A DNA stretch of 4,919 nucleotides from a virus (lineage: Duplodnaviria; Heunggongvirae; Uroviricota; Caudoviricetes). The notes beneath the pieces were generated by a model. That model was not told where the DNA came from, made no database searches, and was given only the letters and a program-made list of their open reading frames with translations. Position 1 is the stretch's first letter, and each line of letters begins with the position of its first letter. Positions 1-4,919 of this stretch are shown piece after piece. The stretch spans positions 1-4,919 of the IMG/VR virus record IMGVR_UViG_2703718769_000001; one strand, written 5' to 3'. Made by a program: the position numbers and the translations under genes.

Positions 1-301
1 CTCTCCAGGAAACCCGGGGCGGTTCATCATGATTACTTGCAGGTTCGGCACCATGAAGCATGGCAGCACGGCAGGCGTTCCAGCCTTGAACCTTAGCTAT
101 TGCCACAACTGCATCGGTAAAGAACATTCTCGCGGTATCTGGCTCCGGAATTTCATCCGGCACATATGCAGGAGATGGCTTGTCAGCGAGCATTGACATC
201 AACGCGCAGATGGTGTCCTCGCTGATTTCAAACATACCACTGGCGTTCTGCGTCGAGGATTTAAGCTCTTCGATAATGCGCTCTTTCGTAAACTCAGCCA
301 T
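1..301 (-). CDS. Hypothetical protein, 3'-partial (runs off window start); begins MAEFTKERIIEELKSSTQNASGMFEISEDTICALMSMLADKPSPAYVPDE...
   Basis: ATG at 299-301 (minus strand), GGGGAG Shine-Dalgarno about 7 nt upstream overlapping the stop of the upstream gene; open for 100 codons to the window edge with no stop. Not in the ORF track because no stop is in the window. No family recognised. Confidence 0.5.
   Translation of the reverse strand, partial: MAEFTKERIIEELKSSTQNASGMFEISEDTICALMSMLADKPSPAYVPDEIPEPDTARMFFTDAVVAIAKVQGWNACRAAMLHGAEPASNHDEPPRVSWR
2..26. repeat. Left copy of terminal inverted repeat (tctccaggaaacccggggcggttca)
   Basis: Reverse complement of 4895-4919 is tctccaggattcccggggcggttca; 23/25 identical, mismatches at 11-12. 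Extends to about 31 nt with one indel. Contains a CCCGGG site. Confidence 0.8.
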
Positions 302-305
302 ATCC

Positions 306-842
306 CTACTCCCCATTGATGCTGACATTAACGCCAGCTTTGCGAATCTCATCGGCGCATCTGTTGATAATATTTCTGTGAAACTCACAAAAAATTTTCG
401 CCGACTGCGGCCCTAATGGGTGAACATCTTGCGCACGCGGCAGCACAACCTCCCGCGCCTCCAGCTCAGAAATCCGCTTCTCTGCTGCTTCCAGTTCAAC
501 ACGCAGCTTCCCTACCGTAAGAGCAATTTCCTCGTTCTCCTGGTCGCGGCGTTTGATGTATTGCTGTTTTCTTTCCAGCTCATCCAGCAGCGCCAAGACG
601 GTAGCCGGATTGGCTGCGGCGATGAATTCAGCATTGGCCTGCTGTTCCATTTGGAAATCTTCATCGAAACCGCTTTCTGGATGCGCTCCTTCAATTCTGC
701 AAATGGGAAGATATCCAGCAACTTCACGATGAATTAGCGCATCATCACCATCAAATCGGCCCTCTCCATATTCGAGCGACCACTCGCCACACGTTGCTTT
801 CTCTGCCTTTTCACGCAGTGCCTGATAGTCAATCTTGCTCAC
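306..842 (-). CDS. ead/Ea22-like lambdoid early protein with central coiled-coil (178 aa)
   Basis: GTG start at 840-842 preceded by AAGGAGG at 6-nt spacing. Translation MSKIDYQALREKAEKATCGEW...ANPATVLALLDELERKQQ... resembles the ead/Ea22-like family as recalled from memory; not verified by search. Confidence 0.55.
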   Translation of the reverse strand: MSKIDYQALREKAEKATCGEWSLEYGEGRFDGDDALIHREVAGYLPICRIEGAHPESGFDEDFQMEQQANAEFIAAANPATVLALLDELERKQQYIKRRDQENEEIALTVGKLRVELEAAEKRISELEAREVVLPRAQDVHPLGPQSAKIFCEFHRNIINRCADEIRKAGVNVSINGE

Positions 843-1323
843 TGGCCGCCTCCTTCATAAAAATAATCCAGTGGGTCTTGTCACCTTTTCCTGTTCGTTG
901 ACCGATAACAGGCTTTCTGTCGGTCAGTGCCAATATCTGGCGAACAGGTATTTGCGTTTCATTCCATTTAAAAATCAGAACGCCGTATGGCCGCAACACA
1001 CGAAAGGCTTCTTTAAATCCCTGCCGCAAATCATCACGCCAGGTATCTTTATTCAGCCGTCCATATTTCTTTCCCATCCAGGCGTTATCACCAACACGCT
1101 CAAGATGCGGAGGGTCGAATACAACAACCGGAAACGATGCGTCTGCAAATGGTAATGCACGAAAATCTGCTATCAGGTCAGGGCTAATTATCAGCCGTCG
1201 TCCATCACATAATGTGTGCTCTTCCTTTCTGATATCGCTAAATATCGCCCGGTCGTCATTCTTATCGAACCAGAACATGCGACTGCCACAGCACATGTCG
1301 AGGATAGCTGCATGTCCAGTCAC
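829..1323 (-). CDS. Small SAM-dependent methyltransferase, probable phage orphan DNA methyltransferase (164 aa)
   Basis: GTG start at 1321-1323 overlapping the upstream TGA stop (GTGA), AAGGAGG 6 nt upstream. Contains a motif-I-like segment ILDMCCGSRMF and a motif-IV-like VVVFDPPH about 60 residues later, then LIFKW and QRTGKGDKTHW. Precise class (N6-adenine, N4-cytosine, MT-A70-like) cannot be resolved by eye. Confidence 0.6.
   Translation of the reverse strand: MTGHAAILDMCCGSRMFWFDKNDDRAIFSDIRKEEHTLCDGRRLIISPDLIADFRALPFADASFPVVVFDPPHLERVGDNAWMGKKYGRLNKDTWRDDLRQGFKEAFRVLRPYGVLIFKWNETQIPVRQILALTDRKPVIGQRTGKGDKTHWIIFMKEAASEQD
849..855 (-). promoter_or_regulatory. Shine-Dalgarno AAGGAGG for the ead/Ea22-like gene
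   Basis: Minus-strand AAGGAGG lies 6 nt upstream of the GTG start at 842. Confidence 0.6.
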
Positions 1324-1718
1324 TGGTTGCCTCCTTTGCGAAGCTGGGCGGCTAACTCGTCACATATGTGCGTCAAAGAGCAAAGTTTGATTGATGGATG
1401 TTCGCGCATCATCTCTACCCCCTGCGCCCGCACTTCAGCCAGGAAGGCGTCGGTGGCCGGGGTTTTGCAGGACATTTGAATTGCCTTCTCTGTGTATAAA
1501 ACACCCGTTCGATTGGCGGTATACATGATGGTGTTTACAGCATCTTGATGTGCTGATTTCACAGCCTCAACTTCAGCAGCCAGCGCCGCGCACTTGGCCT
1601 CCGCTTCAGCAAATTTACGCACCAGATATTCAGCGTTTGTTTCGTTAACCTTTAAATCACTTGGGATGCATTTACCTTTCAGAAATCCATCCATCTCAAT
1701 TAGTGTCATTTGTTTCAT
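1320..1718 (-). CDS. Hypothetical coiled-coil protein (132 aa from ATG at 1718; track gives a GTG-start version to 1736)
   Basis: ATG at 1716-1718 overlaps the TGA stop of the upstream small ORF (ATGA coupling); GGAG/GGGAAG upstream. Translation [16 protein letters not shown]...[18 protein letters not shown]...; no family recognised. Start choice is uncertain. Confidence 0.5.
1330..1336 (-). promoter_or_regulatory. Shine-Dalgarno AAGGAGG for the methyltransferase gene
   Basis: Minus-strand AAGGAGG lies 6 nt upstream of the GTG start at 1323. Confidence 0.6.
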
Positions 1719-1879
1719 TTCTTCCCACTCCGCCACATCGCATTCAGATACTTGTTTTGATTCACTGATGGAAAAGAATTTCTCTTAAGCAATTCCTCTC
1801 TCGATGGCATTGGCTTTACGCGTTGGCGAATAATCATTTCTGCCGGAAGAATGCCGGGATTGTATGCAAGTCCTCTCAT
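1715..1879 (-). CDS. Small hypothetical protein (54 aa; [54 protein letters not shown])
   Basis: ATG at 1877-1879 with GAGGAA 7 nt upstream; an alternative in-frame ATG at 1896 overlaps the upstream gene's stop. Its stop overlaps the start of the downstream gene (ATGA). Fills an otherwise uncovered gap in a compact operon. Below the track's length cut-off as an ATG ORF. Confidence 0.35.
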
Positions 1880-1889
1880 GGTAAATTCC

Positions 1890-2186
1890 TCAGTCATTAC
1901 TGATAGCGCCATAGCGTGAGCGGTAATTACGCAGGCGCGGGTCGATATATTCAGGGAAGTGGGTATATGTGGCTTTGCGGAATGGTCGGATTGATGTCTG
2001 GTAAATTCGCTCGCGTTCTTCTTTCTCTGCAAGCCATATACAGTGGCGAAATTCCTTTTCCTCTTTCGTTTCCTGCGGTAGAGACATTATTCGATCGTAG
2101 TTTTTTCTGAATTTATCCAGCACCTCCGATACGGAATTGCCGGAACAGCGGCGCGCGTCATCCGCACCATACAGAGGCGCTGGCAT
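1890..2186 (-). CDS. Hypothetical phage protein (98 aa)
   Basis: ATG at 2184-2186 with AGGAG about 7 nt upstream, 13 nt after the HNH stop. Translation [44 protein letters not shown]...; no family recognised. Confidence 0.55.
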
Positions 2187-2199
2187 GATTTTCTCCTGA

Positions 2200-2679
2200 T
2201 TAAATTGCGTGAATAGCGTGACGAGGGAAGGGGAGAGTTACTGGTTCCTCGTCTGGGTAGATAGGTTTGTTATGTTTGTGCCACTCGAAATGACATGACT
2301 TGCAGAGCCACATCACATCGGTTGGTTTGCTGTAGTCGCAGTGGTGCGCCTGTGGTTTACATCCTGATCCGCAGCACTCACATTGTGGTGGTCGGATTAG
2401 CTTACCGTCGCGCAAAAAATTACCCACAATGATGTGGGCTTTTCTTTTCCATGGGTTGCTCTGAATGAACCGCTTTTTGGCTGCGTTACACCGTTCTCTT
2501 CCGCGTTCCGATGATTGATATTCTCTCCTTGCTGATACTCGATGTGGCAATCCAGCGCGTTCTTTGTCGTATTCAGCCAGGCAAGCCCGGCAAGCGGCAG
2601 TTAATCCATCTCTGGATGCTCTTCTGATTTGAAAGTCCCTTTCTTCCTTCTGTTGATGGCATCTTGAGCAGATTTTCAT
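2200..2679 (-). CDS. HNH endonuclease with N-terminal Cys-rich zinc-ribbon region (159 aa)
   Basis: ATG at 2677-2679 with GGAG about 7 nt upstream. C-terminal CECCGSGCKPQAHHCDYSKPTDVMWLCKSCHFEWH fits an HNH/zinc-finger nuclease core; N-terminal CSRCH...CRAC Cys pairs. Confidence 0.65.
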   Translation of the reverse strand: MKICSRCHQQKEERDFQIRRASRDGLTAACRACLAEYDKERAGLPHRVSARREYQSSERGRERCNAAKKRFIQSNPWKRKAHIIVGNFLRDGKLIRPPQCECCGSGCKPQAHHCDYSKPTDVMWLCKSCHFEWHKHNKPIYPDEEPVTLPFPRHAIHAI

Positions 2680-2688
2680 ATTCAGCTC

Positions 2689-3162
2689 CTAGAACGGAAT
2701 ATCCGAATCGTCGAAGTTCATAGGTGGTTCGCTGTGATTCCCATGCTGCTGAGATTGCTGTCTTTGTTGCTGGCCGTTATTTCGCTGAGGTGAAGACTGT
2801 TCATTGCTTCCTTGCTTGCCACCAAGCATTTGCATGGTTCCACCAACGCCCACGATAACTTCGGTAGTGAACCGATCCTGTCCGCTTTGATCCTGCCATT
2901 TTCTTGTCCGCAATTTTCCTTCAAGATAAACCTCAGAGCCTTTTCGCAGATATTCGCTGGCAATTTCTGCCAGTTTCCCGCTCATTACCACACGGTGCCA
3001 CTCCGTCTGCTCCTTTTGCTCTCCAGTTTGCTTATCACGCCATTGTTCTGACGTAGCAACTGTAAGGTTTGCAAATGCCGTTCCTGATGGTGAATATCTG
3101 ATTTCTGGATCATGCCCAAGGCGACCAATAATGATCACCTTATTTACGCCTCTGCTTGCCAT
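2689..3162 (-). CDS. ssb: Single-stranded DNA-binding protein, phage-encoded (157 aa)
   Basis: Translation [23 protein letters not shown]...[52 protein letters not shown]...DDSDIPF shows an SSB OB-fold core, Gly/Gln-rich linker and acidic C-terminal tail ending DIPF. ATG immediately follows the TAA of the upstream gene. Confidence 0.9.
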
Positions 3163-3870
3163 TTATGCCGCCTGTTTTAGCTCGTTAACTCTGATGTTCA
3201 TTACCTGAACGCATTTAGCCTGCGCCTCCTCGTTTCCAGCCATTAATTGCCAGTCACGCTGATAACGCTCGATGAGTTTTTTCTTGTCAGTTTCTGTTGA
3301 CGCATAATCGCTGAAGTCTTTCAGGATTTGTTCGCAGTCAACCGATGGAGATTTCTGGTTGGTATTTTCTGGTGATGGTTTGTTATCTGATGCTGGGATT
3401 GCCCATCCCGGCAGCGATGGAGGGAGCCAGTAAAATCCTGTTCCATCCTTCAGTTTTGCCCTGTGCCACCCCTGCTTTTTATCGAGAGATGTTTGTGCGA
3501 AACCTTCCTCAAGGTTATACAGATACCGACCGATTCCCCACTGAACGGCAGCGCGCTTCATTGCACCGGAACGACCACCTTTGACGGCTTCTACCTGCGT
3601 GTTTTCAGCAGCATCCCATTTGGTTACCCATTCGGAATCAATCTTTATTGATATGCCGCATTCAACGCCGCCGTTGTTGGGAATATCGCGGTATTCATTG
3701 CGCCATCCTGCTTTGCCGCAAACATCGTCCAGGCGTTTCATGATTGCCCGGTTCGTGACATAAGCCAGCACCATAGCCCACACCTTGCCATCGCGTGTTT
3801 TACCGCTTTGCTGTATTCGCCATTCGATATCTTCAGGGCTGAATGGCTCATCGAATTTGTTCAAATCCAT
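3163..3870 (-). CDS. Rad52/Sak-type single-strand annealing protein, phage recombinase (235 aa)
   Basis: ATG at 3868-3870 with GAGGTG upstream. N-terminal FDEPFSPEDIEWRIQQ...AMVLAYVTNRAIMKRLDDVCGKAGWRNEY matches the pattern recalled for phage Rad52-family annealing proteins; sits directly upstream of ssb. Family assignment is from memory. Confidence 0.65.
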   Translation of the reverse strand: MDLNKFDEPFSPEDIEWRIQQSGKTRDGKVWAMVLAYVTNRAIMKRLDDVCGKAGWRNEYRDIPNNGGVECGISIKIDSEWVTKWDAAENTQVEAVKGGRSGAMKRAAVQWGIGRYLYNLEEGFAQTSLDKKQGWHRAKLKDGTGFYWLPPSLPGWAIPASDNKPSPENTNQKSPSVDCEQILKDFSDYASTETDKKKLIERYQRDWQLMAGNEEAQAKCVQVMNIRVNELKQAA

Positions 3871-3878
3871 AATTCACC

Positions 3879-4049
3879 TCAGAATGGACACGGCCCAAGG
3901 AAATAACGCTGATTTAATACTTCGACTCGGGACAAATTAAGGCATACCCGCATTCCTTCGCGGTCACCATTATGGCGATACCAGAGAGCTTTCTGAGTGT
4001 ACATGCGCCTCTGTAACTTGCTCTCCTTCACTGTGGTTGCAAGTGACAT
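3879..4049 (-). CDS. Small basic hypothetical protein (56 aa; MSLATTVKESKLQRRMYTQKALWYRHNGDREGMRVCLNLSRVEVLNQRYFLGPCPF) at the position of gam/arf in lambda/P22
   Basis: ATG at 4047-4049 with AAGGAG at 6-nt spacing (4056-4061); its TGA stop overlaps the Shine-Dalgarno of the annealing-protein gene. A competing 52-aa ORF (3970..4128) starts on an ATGA overlap with kil, so the true frame is unresolved. Confidence 0.35.
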   Translation of the reverse strand: MSLATTVKESKLQRRMYTQKALWYRHNGDREGMRVCLNLSRVEVLNQRYFLGPCPF

Positions 4050-4124
4050 GAATATCTCCTTCGTTACCGATTAATTCTTTCATCTGACGAATGAATTCTT
4101 CGTCTGACCAGTTATCTGTAAAAC

Positions 4125-4277
4125 TCATTTCCTGCGATACCACGGAAGGTTGATAGCTGATTTCATCGCTTTATTTGCTTCAAGCCACATTTTGGAATCA
4201 CCAATAAATCTGGCTATTACTGCTTTGTTCTGTGCAGCGCGAAGCATCTGGTGATTGATGTCTATTTCATTGCGCAT
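4125..4277 (-). CDS. kil: Kil-like host cell-division inhibitor peptide (50 aa)
   Basis: ATG at 4275-4277, overlapping the 3' end of the cIII homolog by 16 nt. Translation MRNEIDINHQMLRAAQNKAVIARFIGDSKMWLEANKAMKSAINLPWYRRK; the IA.FIGD.KM..EA core resembles lambda Kil as recalled, and the position right after cIII matches lambda. Confidence 0.55.
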   Translation of the reverse strand: MRNEIDINHQMLRAAQNKAVIARFIGDSKMWLEANKAMKSAINLPWYRRK

Positions 4278-4393
4278 AATAAGACCTCAACTCTTTTCCA
4301 TCCGTCACGTAATTTACGGGTGATTCGTTCAAGTAAAGATTCATTTAGTTGGAAGGCACCCATGCGAGCGCCTCCCGCGATTGCGTAAATCAT
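4262..4393 (-). CDS. cIII: cIII homolog, FtsH/HflB protease inhibitor (43 aa)
   Basis: ATG at 4391-4393 with AAGGAA 7 nt upstream. Translation MIYAIAGGARMGAFQLNESLLERITRKLRDGWKRVEVLLCAMK contains the ESLLERITRKLRDGWKR helix recalled from lambda cIII. Below the track's 60-aa cut-off. Confidence 0.8.
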   Translation of the reverse strand: MIYAIAGGARMGAFQLNESLLERITRKLRDGWKRVEVLLCAMK

Positions 4394-4417
4394 GGGTGGT
4401 TCCTTATATTGGTTTTA

Positions 4418-4919
4418 TTAGTAGGTTATTTTTGTTGCGAATACTTCGCCTTTTACGATGGCTGTTATGATATTTTTAGCAACATCTTCTGATGCACCAA
4501 CCTTGATAAGGTCAGCAAGTATTTTGTTATTTACTTCTTTCCGGTGAGCTTTATCCTTTGCTCTACGCTCTTCTTCGTCCTTGATTCTTTTTTCTTCTGC
4601 TATTCTGGCTTGCTCTTTTGCTTCAGCCTCGCGCCGGATTCGTTCAGCCTCCTCCTGTGCTTTTCGGCGTTCTGCTTCAATTGCCGCATGCTTTTCTCTT
4701 TCAGCTCGTTCTGCTGCCTCTTTTGCTTCGCGCTGTGCTCGTTGCTCGGCTTCAATGCGTTCACGCTCTGCACGTTCCGCTGCGGCCTTAGCTTCTGCTT
4801 CTCGCCTTGCTGCTGCTTCAATTTCGGCTTTTGCCTTTGCTTCGGCTTCTGCTCTGGCTTTCTCTTCAGCTTCTCTTTTTAAGCGTTCTTCATGTGAACC
4901 GCCCCGGGAATCCTGGAGA
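4418..4919 (-). CDS. Charged low-complexity coiled-coil protein, 5'-partial (start beyond window end); superficially TolA domain II-like
   Basis: Minus-strand frame is open from the window edge for 166 codons to tandem TAA TAA at 4415-4420. Translation ...EAEEKARAEAEAKAKAEIEAAARREAEAKAAAERAERERIEAEQRAQREAKEAAERAEREKHAAIEAERRKAQEEAERIRREAEAKEQARIAEEKRIKDEEERRAKDKAHRKEVNNKILADLIKVGASEDVAKNIITAIVKGEVFATKITY. Not in the ORF track because no start is in the window. Confidence 0.55.
   Translation of the reverse strand, partial: LQDSRGGSHEERLKREAEEKARAEAEAKAKAEIEAAARREAEAKAAAERAERERIEAEQRAQREAKEAAERAEREKHAAIEAERRKAQEEAERIRREAEAKEQARIAEEKRIKDEEERRAKDKAHRKEVNNKILADLIKVGASEDVAKNIITAIVKGEVFATKITY
4540..4890. 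repeat. Low-complexity pyrimidine-rich (plus strand) cryptic simple-sequence tract, GCTTC/GCTGC-type units, encoding the E/A/R/K repeat region
   Basis: Visible reiteration of gcttc, gctgc, ttctgc and cttttgc motifs; all three frames on both strands are low-complexity, which explains the spurious track ORFs 4544..4882(+) and 4600..4821(-). Confidence 0.6.
4895..4919. repeat. Right copy of terminal inverted repeat (tgaaccgccccgggaatcctggaga)
   Basis: Inverted partner of 2-26 (23/25). Lies inside the 5'-partial coiled-coil ORF. Confidence 0.8.

Follow-up and report, generated by a model that had tools for sequence, protein, structure and literature searches.

A probable P22-like early-left segment of an Escherichia coli prophage, its likely modular make-up and its predicted orphan methyltransferase

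Gene content and origin of the window

The stretch of DNA analysed here, referred to as the window, comprises 4,919 nucleotides (nt) of a Caudoviricetes record in IMG/VR (IMGVR_UViG_2703718769_000001, positions 1 to 4,919), and the subject of this study is a run of five genes at 829-2679 within it. In order of transcription these encode an HNH-type endonuclease, the anti-RecBCD protein Abc2, a small DUF2737 protein, a protein of the EaE/HkaH family and a small orphan methyltransferase dependent on S-adenosylmethionine (SAM) (Table 1). An initial annotation had presented the run as a translationally coupled cassette and a candidate anti-defence island. The five open reading frames (ORFs) it had drawn are confirmed in position and size, all on the minus strand and encoding 159, 98, 54, 132 and 164 amino acids (aa), and strongly significant homologues were found for every one of them, indicating that they are real genes rather than chance ORFs.

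All sizeable conserved ORFs of the window lie on the minus strand, where the order of transcription is cIII, kil, two small ORFs, Erf/Rad52, SSB, the five genes (from 2679 to 829) and Ead/Ea22; cIII and kil are annotated in the matching Shigella phage Sf6 and E. coli records. The run was correctly placed in the variable early-left stretch of lambdoid and P22-like phages, between the recombination core (Erf and SSB, upstream) and an ead/Ea22 gene (downstream).

The five-gene segment is very probably the distal portion of the early-left (PL) operon in a P22-like prophage carried by E. coli (Lederbergvirus, of the Sf6/HK620/IME10 type), and its genes are in all likelihood independently assorting modules, not a single system. 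Three contigs of E. coli draft genomes (L008, L010, L011) match the window at 100% identity, and two further E. coli contigs are 99.9% identical to it. Sf6 and coliphage IME10 show 98-98.8% nucleotide identity across about 70% of the window. A single piece covering 80% or more of the window was not found in any complete phage or E. coli genome of the collections searched, which indicates that the window is one particular mosaic of common modules.

The junctions between the genes are of two kinds. Spacers of 9 nt (ssb to HNH), 13 nt (HNH to abc2) and 10 nt (abc2 to the DUF2737 gene) each carry a Shine-Dalgarno (SD) sequence, and overlaps are found between the DUF2737 and 132-aa genes (ATGA), between the 132-aa and methyltransferase genes (GTGA) and between the methyltransferase gene and ead (14 nt). 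These three overlapping junctions point to strict translational coupling for the last three; the coupling claimed for the entire run does not extend to the first two junctions, which are short spacers with SD sequences of their own. No sigma-70-like promoter was found inside 829-2679, which fits read-through from the PL promoter. Given this operon layout and established lambdoid biology, N-type antiterminated read-through from PL would be expected early in infection or after induction, with all genes transcribed at those times and silent in a lysogen. Genes of the PL operon are repressed in lysogens, so the methylome of a lysogen would probably be uninformative.

Table 1. Features of the window, with positions numbered from its first nucleotide
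Feature	Position	Strand	Size	Remarks
HNH-type endonuclease gene	2200-2679	minus	159 aa	Homologue of Sf6 gp26 and of the epsilon34 gene 34 product
abc2, anti-RecBCD protein 2	1890-2186	minus	98 aa	PF11043; phrog_656, 2.3e-56
DUF2737 small basic protein	1715-1879	minus	54 aa	PF10930, 1.5e-30; isoelectric point 11
EaE/HkaH-family mosaic protein	1320-1718	minus	132 aa	ATG start; phrog_614, 8.8e-53 (unknown function)
Small orphan class I SAM-dependent methyltransferase (predicted)	829-1323	minus	164 aa	GTG start; motif I LDMCCGS, motif IV DPPH
HNH indel, approximate extent	2245-2691	minus	~445 nt	Relative to the HNH-less alleles of HK75 and GF131
Junction motif copy AAGGAGGCAACCAGTGA	1320-1336	minus		5' boundary of the methyltransferase module (EaE/methyltransferase)
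Junction motif copy AAGGAGGCGGCCAGTGA	839-855	minus		3' boundary of the methyltransferase module and ead start
Erf-like/Rad52-family single-strand annealing protein	3163-3870	minus	235 aa	PF04098, 5e-26; annotated as Erf-like in Sf6 and IME10
Phage SSB	2689-3162	minus	157 aa	PF00436, 1.7e-38; canonical ...DSDIPF tip at its end
Ead/Ea22-like protein	306-842	minus	178 aa	PF13935, 1.5e-34

The arrangement itself is familiar. The order erf-ssb-(HNH)-abc2-DUF2737-...-ead is shared with Sf6 (genes 21-28), epsilon34 (33-36), HK620 (hkaG-hkaL) and IME10, and the shared modules are 95-99% identical at the nucleotide level. Sf6 differs in carrying gp24/gp22 between DUF2737 and ead, in place of the EaE-like and methyltransferase genes, while HK620 differs in that HkaH is joined directly to ead with no methyltransferase. 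The series erf-ssb-endonuclease-abc2 is annotated in Sf6 and abc2-hkaI-hkaH-ead in HK620; the Erf-SSB-endonuclease-Abc2 set has also been described in epsilon34, with a "possible endonuclease" between ssb and abc2 (PMC2629481). The abc1/abc2 neighbourhood has already been published as an accessory region holding counter-defence genes (Silas et al., bioRxiv 10.1101/2023.04.06.535777); HK620, Sf6, DUF2737 and the methyltransferase of the window are not mentioned in the supplementary files of that study. The segment is an ordinary, already catalogued P22-like prophage stretch with little that is new, and the region is a known accessory region with one known counter-defence gene and one plausible, predicted orphan methyltransferase. 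The analysis re-identifies a published P22-like gene arrangement, corrects labels that had read "unknown" and provides a worked example of lambdoid early-region genes swapped as modules at short SD-GTGA motifs, together with an HNH gene in the ssb tail.

One host prophage with the exact region (L007; GCA_053209685.1 JBRUPV010000011.1, 1-20399) is rich in insertion sequence (IS) elements. IS3-family transposases stand on either side of its repressor gene and adjoin a late gene like P22 gp16, and at the prophage end beside proA/proB an IS21 element (istA/istB) comes just after an excisionase-like gene; an integrase gene was not called.

Several points weigh against reading the segment as a P22-like stretch of dispensable modules with a homing-type HNH gene among them. 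The L007 prophage is probably defective. The HNH protein, searched against Pfam at E<=10, drew a spurious zinc ribbon only and no HNH model. Viable phage were not recovered from a P22 eaC-eaE deletion (PMC11016777), a hint that the word "accessory" may understate the importance of some "ea" genes, with polarity effects as another possible cause.

Abc2, the small ea proteins and the co-occurrence of the five genes

The three small proteins of the run had been described as lacking recognisable motifs, and all three match named families. The 98-aa protein is Abc2: PF11043 matches it at 4.1e-61 (203.6 bits against a cutoff of 25), with residues 1-98 on profile positions 1-97 of 97, and P22 Abc2 (PDB 8B1T/8B1U; 8B1T chain A) matches at an E value of 1.8e-55 with about 88% identity. 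For this gene the outcome is one that the initial annotation had itself named as speaking against its proposal, namely confident assignment to an established phage function. Residue Pro68 is conserved in the window protein (...SIRPFRK...). The mechanism and structure of Abc2, including the role of P68 as the residue engaged by PpiB, have been reported, and P22 Abc2 binds RecC and is thought to hijack RecBCD to yield single-stranded DNA for Erf rather than to destroy phage DNA (PMC9836394). On the strength of the 88% identity and this literature, the window protein would bind RecC and modify RecBCD in the same manner. Abc2 would complete an Erf-SSB-Abc2 recombination module in which RecBCD is turned from a destroyer of phage DNA into a resection engine for the phage recombinase. 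To judge from its sequence, it belongs to the recombination module and is at the same time a counter-defence factor. Like its P22 counterpart, it has 98 aa and is encoded downstream of an Erf-type recombinase in the PL operon; unlike P22, the window has no abc1 and carries ssb and HNH in its place, as do Sf6 and epsilon34.

The 54-aa and 132-aa proteins, also previously listed as unknown, now have family names (DUF2737/HkaI and EaE/HkaH). The former matches PF10930 with 105.3 bits against a cutoff of 25, is 100% identical to HK620 HkaI (tblastn), is homologous to P22 Orf56 and is equivalent to the DUF2737 protein of HK97, hkaI having been noted as similar to HK97 gp38. Identification of DUF2737 with P22 Abc1 was considered and rejected: P22 carries a separate abc1, and DUF2737 corresponds to Orf56.

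The 132-aa protein, for which an alternative GTG at 1736 would yield 138 aa, has BLASTP matches to HK620 HkaH (2e-35), IME10 gp07 (3e-33) and P22 EaE (4e-10), and 100% identical proteins occur in E. coli (P0121). The protein is a mosaic in which a variable middle separates conserved N- and C-terminal segments. An IME10 note suggested a relative of Ead/Ea22; this was rejected, there being no Pfam match and an E value of 2.8 in BLASTP against the flanking Ead protein. Its gene directly follows that of DUF2737, as in P22, HK620 and HK75, and the two genes recur together at the start of the "ea" region; they would represent the first "ea" genes, as in P22, HK620, HK97 and HK75. Functional data on DUF2737 and EaE were not found in the literature.

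How often the five genes occur together bears directly on whether they constitute an island. In a survey of 5426 complete E. coli genomes, in which the methyltransferase was counted at the nucleotide level at 80% identity or more, the five-gene segment was covered to at least 80% in 3 genomes. Individual parts of the cassette were present in hundreds to thousands of genomes, and the methyltransferase gene in 855-945 (about 16-17%), usually in other contexts. Of 80 viral contigs with close methyltransferase homologues, only 1 has Abc2, DUF2737 and EaE in the vicinity of the gene. Its neighbours vary widely, and the commonest families immediately beside the methyltransferase, one of them a large C5-cytosine-methylase-like protein, each account for at most 9 of 79 loci. 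In another prophage context a copy adjoins DUF977/dicB. The methyltransferase travels independently. A copy in E. coli O157:H7 SS52 (L016 4013-4486), in a decayed prophage where it adjoins yfdR, carries an internal stop and has a pseudogene annotation.

It is very improbable that the five genes make up one coherent anti-defence island, with cooperation or co-selection of its members against host restriction or defence. Such an island would accommodate the tight packing of the genes in one operon, the presence of a methyltransferase, the standing of Abc2 as a genuine counter-RecBCD factor and the treatment of the abc1/abc2 neighbourhood as a counter-defence region by Silas et al. Against it stand the rarity of the complete set relative to its parts, the HNH gene as an indel of its own, and the methyltransferase, which is separately bracketed (see below) and occurs in many other contexts. 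A PADLOC scan matched methyltransferase models only, with no defence or anti-defence signal for DUF2737, the EaE-like protein or HNH. The anti-defence proposal is partly supported, with Abc2 as a known counter-defence gene in the run, and independently assorting modules describe the five genes better than a cassette does.

The HNH gene in the tail of ssb

The 159-aa protein at the head of the run belongs to phrog_2340 ("endonuclease", 1.2e-46) and is annotated as an endonuclease in Sf6 and as an HNH endonuclease in E. coli CX12. Its translation contains an N-terminal CxxC...CxxC zinc ribbon and a C-terminal CxxC..HH..CxxCH..H motif; the residues of the latter (CECCG...AHHCDY...DVMWLCKSCHFEWH) are in apparent agreement with the HNH (beta-beta-alpha-Me) consensus. 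An NCBIfam search of this protein gave no match, and a single-sequence search of it against solved structures returned nothing useful.

The gene is present or absent at one precise site. It is absent, with conserved flanks, from HK75 and the GF131 prophage, where ssb continues past the ...DDDIPF tip into APVTLPFPRHAIHAI followed by a stop. In the window, ssb terminates directly behind ...DSDIPF, and the same 14 residues, PVTLPFPRHAIHAI, close the HNH ORF. This 14-aa identity is noted in the Sf6 GenBank record. The same slot between ssb and abc2 is empty in HK75 and GF131 and is occupied by HNH in the window and, in MEI1A, by HNH together with a 3'-5' exonuclease. Local similarity between the 3' ends of ssb and HNH leaves the indel boundaries uncertain by a few bases. 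On these comparisons the HNH gene is a discrete indel in the ssb tail, in a pattern that looks typical of a free-standing, homing-type endonuclease gene.

The indel also affects SSB itself. In the HNH-less relatives (L004 4757-4830; L014 2093-2140), SSB bears APVTLPFPRHAIHAI as a 15-residue extension beyond its DDDIPF tip. Where HNH is present (ssb 3' end at 2689-2700, HNH 3' end at 2200-2244), SSB stops at ...DIPF and the extension forms the HNH C-terminus. The DDDIPF tip of SSB normally must be C-terminal for the binding of partner proteins.

Most likely, the HNH gene would be a free-standing, homing-type selfish nuclease. It resembles the free-standing HNH homing endonucleases of phages in being a small ORF with a zinc ribbon and an HNH-like motif, in being present or absent at a single precise site between conserved genes, and in having a 3' end that overlaps sequence common to the tail of the target gene; it is unlike them in having no Pfam HNH match. 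An alternative is that the protein is a working part of the recombination module, for instance one that provides nicks or ends feeding RecBCD-Abc2/Erf, and not a selfish homing endonuclease. HNH does lie between ssb and abc2 in Sf6, epsilon34 and the window prophage, and a slot that also accommodates a 3'-5' exonuclease suggests a place for DNA-processing accessories. This role is nonetheless unlikely: the closely related HK75 and GF131 keep Erf-SSB-Abc2 without HNH, and a clean indel with 14 codons in common with the ssb tail looks like the insertion of a mobile gene.

Two further observations concern the selfish-nuclease candidate as a gene. In several E. coli assemblies (L003 7537-8040; L007, L008, L010, L011), PGAP and other gene callers miss an intact HNH ORF that is 98-100% identical at the DNA level, leaving an apparent "intergenic gap" of 500 nt from ssb to abc2. 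In the window, its coding sequence contains a terminator-like hairpin followed by a T-run on the coding strand (2422-2439, minus; GCCCACATCATTGTGGGT AATTTTTTG); the count of terminator-like hairpins in the window is not above chance expectation.

The methyltransferase module, its possible substrate and minor features

A 17-nt motif, AAGGAGGCNNCCAGTGA, occurs at both ends of the methyltransferase gene and unites an SD sequence with the TGA stop of one gene and the GTG start of the gene that follows. Two copies are observed where 0.01 would be expected by chance. HK620, which has no methyltransferase, has a single copy linking hkaH directly to hkaG (ead); its left half aligns to the EaE/methyltransferase junction of the window and its right half to the methyltransferase/ead junction. 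The bracketing motifs together with the single HK620 copy indicate that the methyltransferase is a self-contained module of 481 nt inserted at a standard boundary sequence. Gene exchange among lambdoid phages would take place at boundary sequences such as these duplicated SD-GTGA motifs. The motif recurs at boundaries of "ea"-region genes in HK620, HK75, IME10 and E. coli prophages (L006 4128-4144; L014 1132-1148), where it specifies the conserved ...(L)RKGG/...MKEA C-termini of the proteins encoded upstream and resembles a recombination linker through which modules are exchanged.

The presence of a small orphan SAM methyltransferase, part of the initial annotation, is well supported. The 164-aa protein matches PHROG 954 at 1.5e-88, and PADLOC models derived from REBASE match it as MTase_II (3e-74) and as oMTase, or orphan methyltransferase (6e-50); its Pfam matches are marginal and generic only. 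The Pfam N6_N4_Mtase model gave no match to the window protein itself and weak matches to 13 of 68 relatives. The family is large, with 7821 close homologues and 2082 clusters at 50% identity (E<=1e-3). At 45-65% identity (tblastn) it extends to phages of Streptococcus, Listeria, Lactobacillus, Gordonia, Corynebacterium, Vibrio, Acinetobacter, Porphyromonas and Bacteroides, and homologues usually lie within phage early or replication regions. No experimental study was found in the literature for any member of this family, including small orphan methyltransferases with the DPPH motif. The "N6 adenine MTase" of Pneumophage SpSL1 was considered as a homologue and rejected as a different, class beta-like protein; adenine methylation was not detectable for it (PMC6755750).

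Residues invariant among 106 diverse members include D9, C11, C12 and G13 (motif I), D30, R32, D53, F54 and D70-P71-P72-H73. An AlphaFold model built on the alignment of these members is confident, with a predicted local distance difference test (pLDDT) score of 89, and places DPPH immediately after strand beta-4, where motif IV lies in methyltransferases of the exocyclic amino groups of bases; an earlier model from 58 close homologues (pLDDT 67, with noise only from Foldseek) was discarded and rebuilt with the more diverse alignment. A class I Rossmann SAM fold, motif I, acidic motif II/III residues, a (D/N/S)PP(Y/F/H/W) motif after beta-4 and a complete SAM pocket are all present. A target-recognition domain is absent from both model and alignment, the catalytic core of about 155 aa making up the entire protein. 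From the conserved residues and the model, the protein is predicted with near certainty to be an active SAM-dependent methyltransferase of nucleobase amino groups.

The substrate is a separate matter. DNA methylation that protects the phage from restriction had been proposed, and the closest structural neighbours sharing the motif are enzymes forming N2-methylguanosine (m2G) or N6-methyladenosine (m6A) in RNA. Methylation of replicating phage DNA early in infection, which would reduce restriction in the next host, is the most plausible of the readings, with roughly an even chance of being correct. A somewhat unlikely alternative is an enzyme without sequence-specific DNA methylation: a DNA amino-methyltransferase of relaxed or absent specificity, or one of the m2G/m6A type that acts on RNA (tRNA/rRNA) and would modify a universally conserved host or phage nucleic acid. 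The small core with no target-recognition domain argues for this alternative, as does identity of 45-65% across phages of distant hosts, which is unusual for sequence-specific methyltransferases, since these diverge in their specificity regions. Structural and profile neighbours with a (D/N)PP(Y/F/H) motif are Trm11, TrmN, Trm14, RsmC, TrmM and HI0767/RsmD-like proteins, with profile matches to PH0226 (2.6e-5), Trm11 (0.06) and RsmD-like HI0767 (0.3), and one NCBI record names a homologue "TRM11 family methyltransferase". A single-sequence search of the protein against solved structures returned nothing useful. Against this alternative stand the REBASE-derived PADLOC models, which place the family among Type II or orphan DNA methyltransferases, the weak N6_N4_Mtase matches of relatives, and gene neighbourhoods: 9 of 79 viral loci have the gene directly upstream of a large C5-cytosine-methyltransferase-like gene, and it adjoins annotated DNA methylases in Gordonia and Enterococcus phages. 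The protein also has no THUMP or other RNA-binding domain of the kind found in Trm11 and TrmN.

Orphan phage and prophage DNA methyltransferases are represented by M.EcoGII of an E. coli prophage, a non-specific class beta enzyme. The window enzyme is like it (PMC5778455, PMC7544214) in being prophage-borne, in having no cognate restriction enzyme and a (D/N)PP(Y/H) catalytic motif, and in being presumably silent in a lysogen; it is unlike it in having 164 aa, a motif order of I then IV (not class beta), no target-recognition domain and no Pfam N6_N4_Mtase match. With the RNA m2G/m6A methyltransferases Trm11, TrmN/Trm14, RsmC, RsmD-like HI0767 and TrmM it shares a (D/N)PP(Y/F)-type motif, and it differs from them in the absence of THUMP or N-terminal RNA-binding domains, in an identity of 14-20% and in belonging to a phage-borne family.

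A more far-reaching and rather improbable proposal is that these minimal methyltransferases, which form more than 2000 clusters at 50% identity and are 45-65% identical between enterobacterial prophages and phages of Firmicutes, Actinobacteria and Bacteroidetes, act with no sequence specificity on DNA, or on a universally conserved RNA, and give a broad-spectrum shield. The targets of such a shield would be restriction enzymes or defences aimed at nucleic acids, and its mechanism would be one not so far described for an enzyme this small. If the protein turned out to be non-specific on DNA or RNA, it could be of practical use as a tool enzyme, and broad anti-restriction would make it biologically interesting. 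The family merits attention as a very common, very small phage methyltransferase, conserved across phyla.

Many enterobacterial homologues (P0009, P0115 and others) are longer, at about 248 aa, through some 90 additional C-terminal residues, and in P0002 (279 aa) the methyltransferase is fused to an EaE-like C-terminal module. These fusions may arise by loss of the stop codon at the junction motif.

Among the minor features, an Rfam search of the window returned zero RNA families. Two small overlapping ORFs of 56 and 57 aa lie between kil and erf (3879-4143, minus), the 57-aa product being acidic. They correspond to Sf6 gp29/gp30, which bear the RefSeq label "recombinase", and their position is that of P22 arf.

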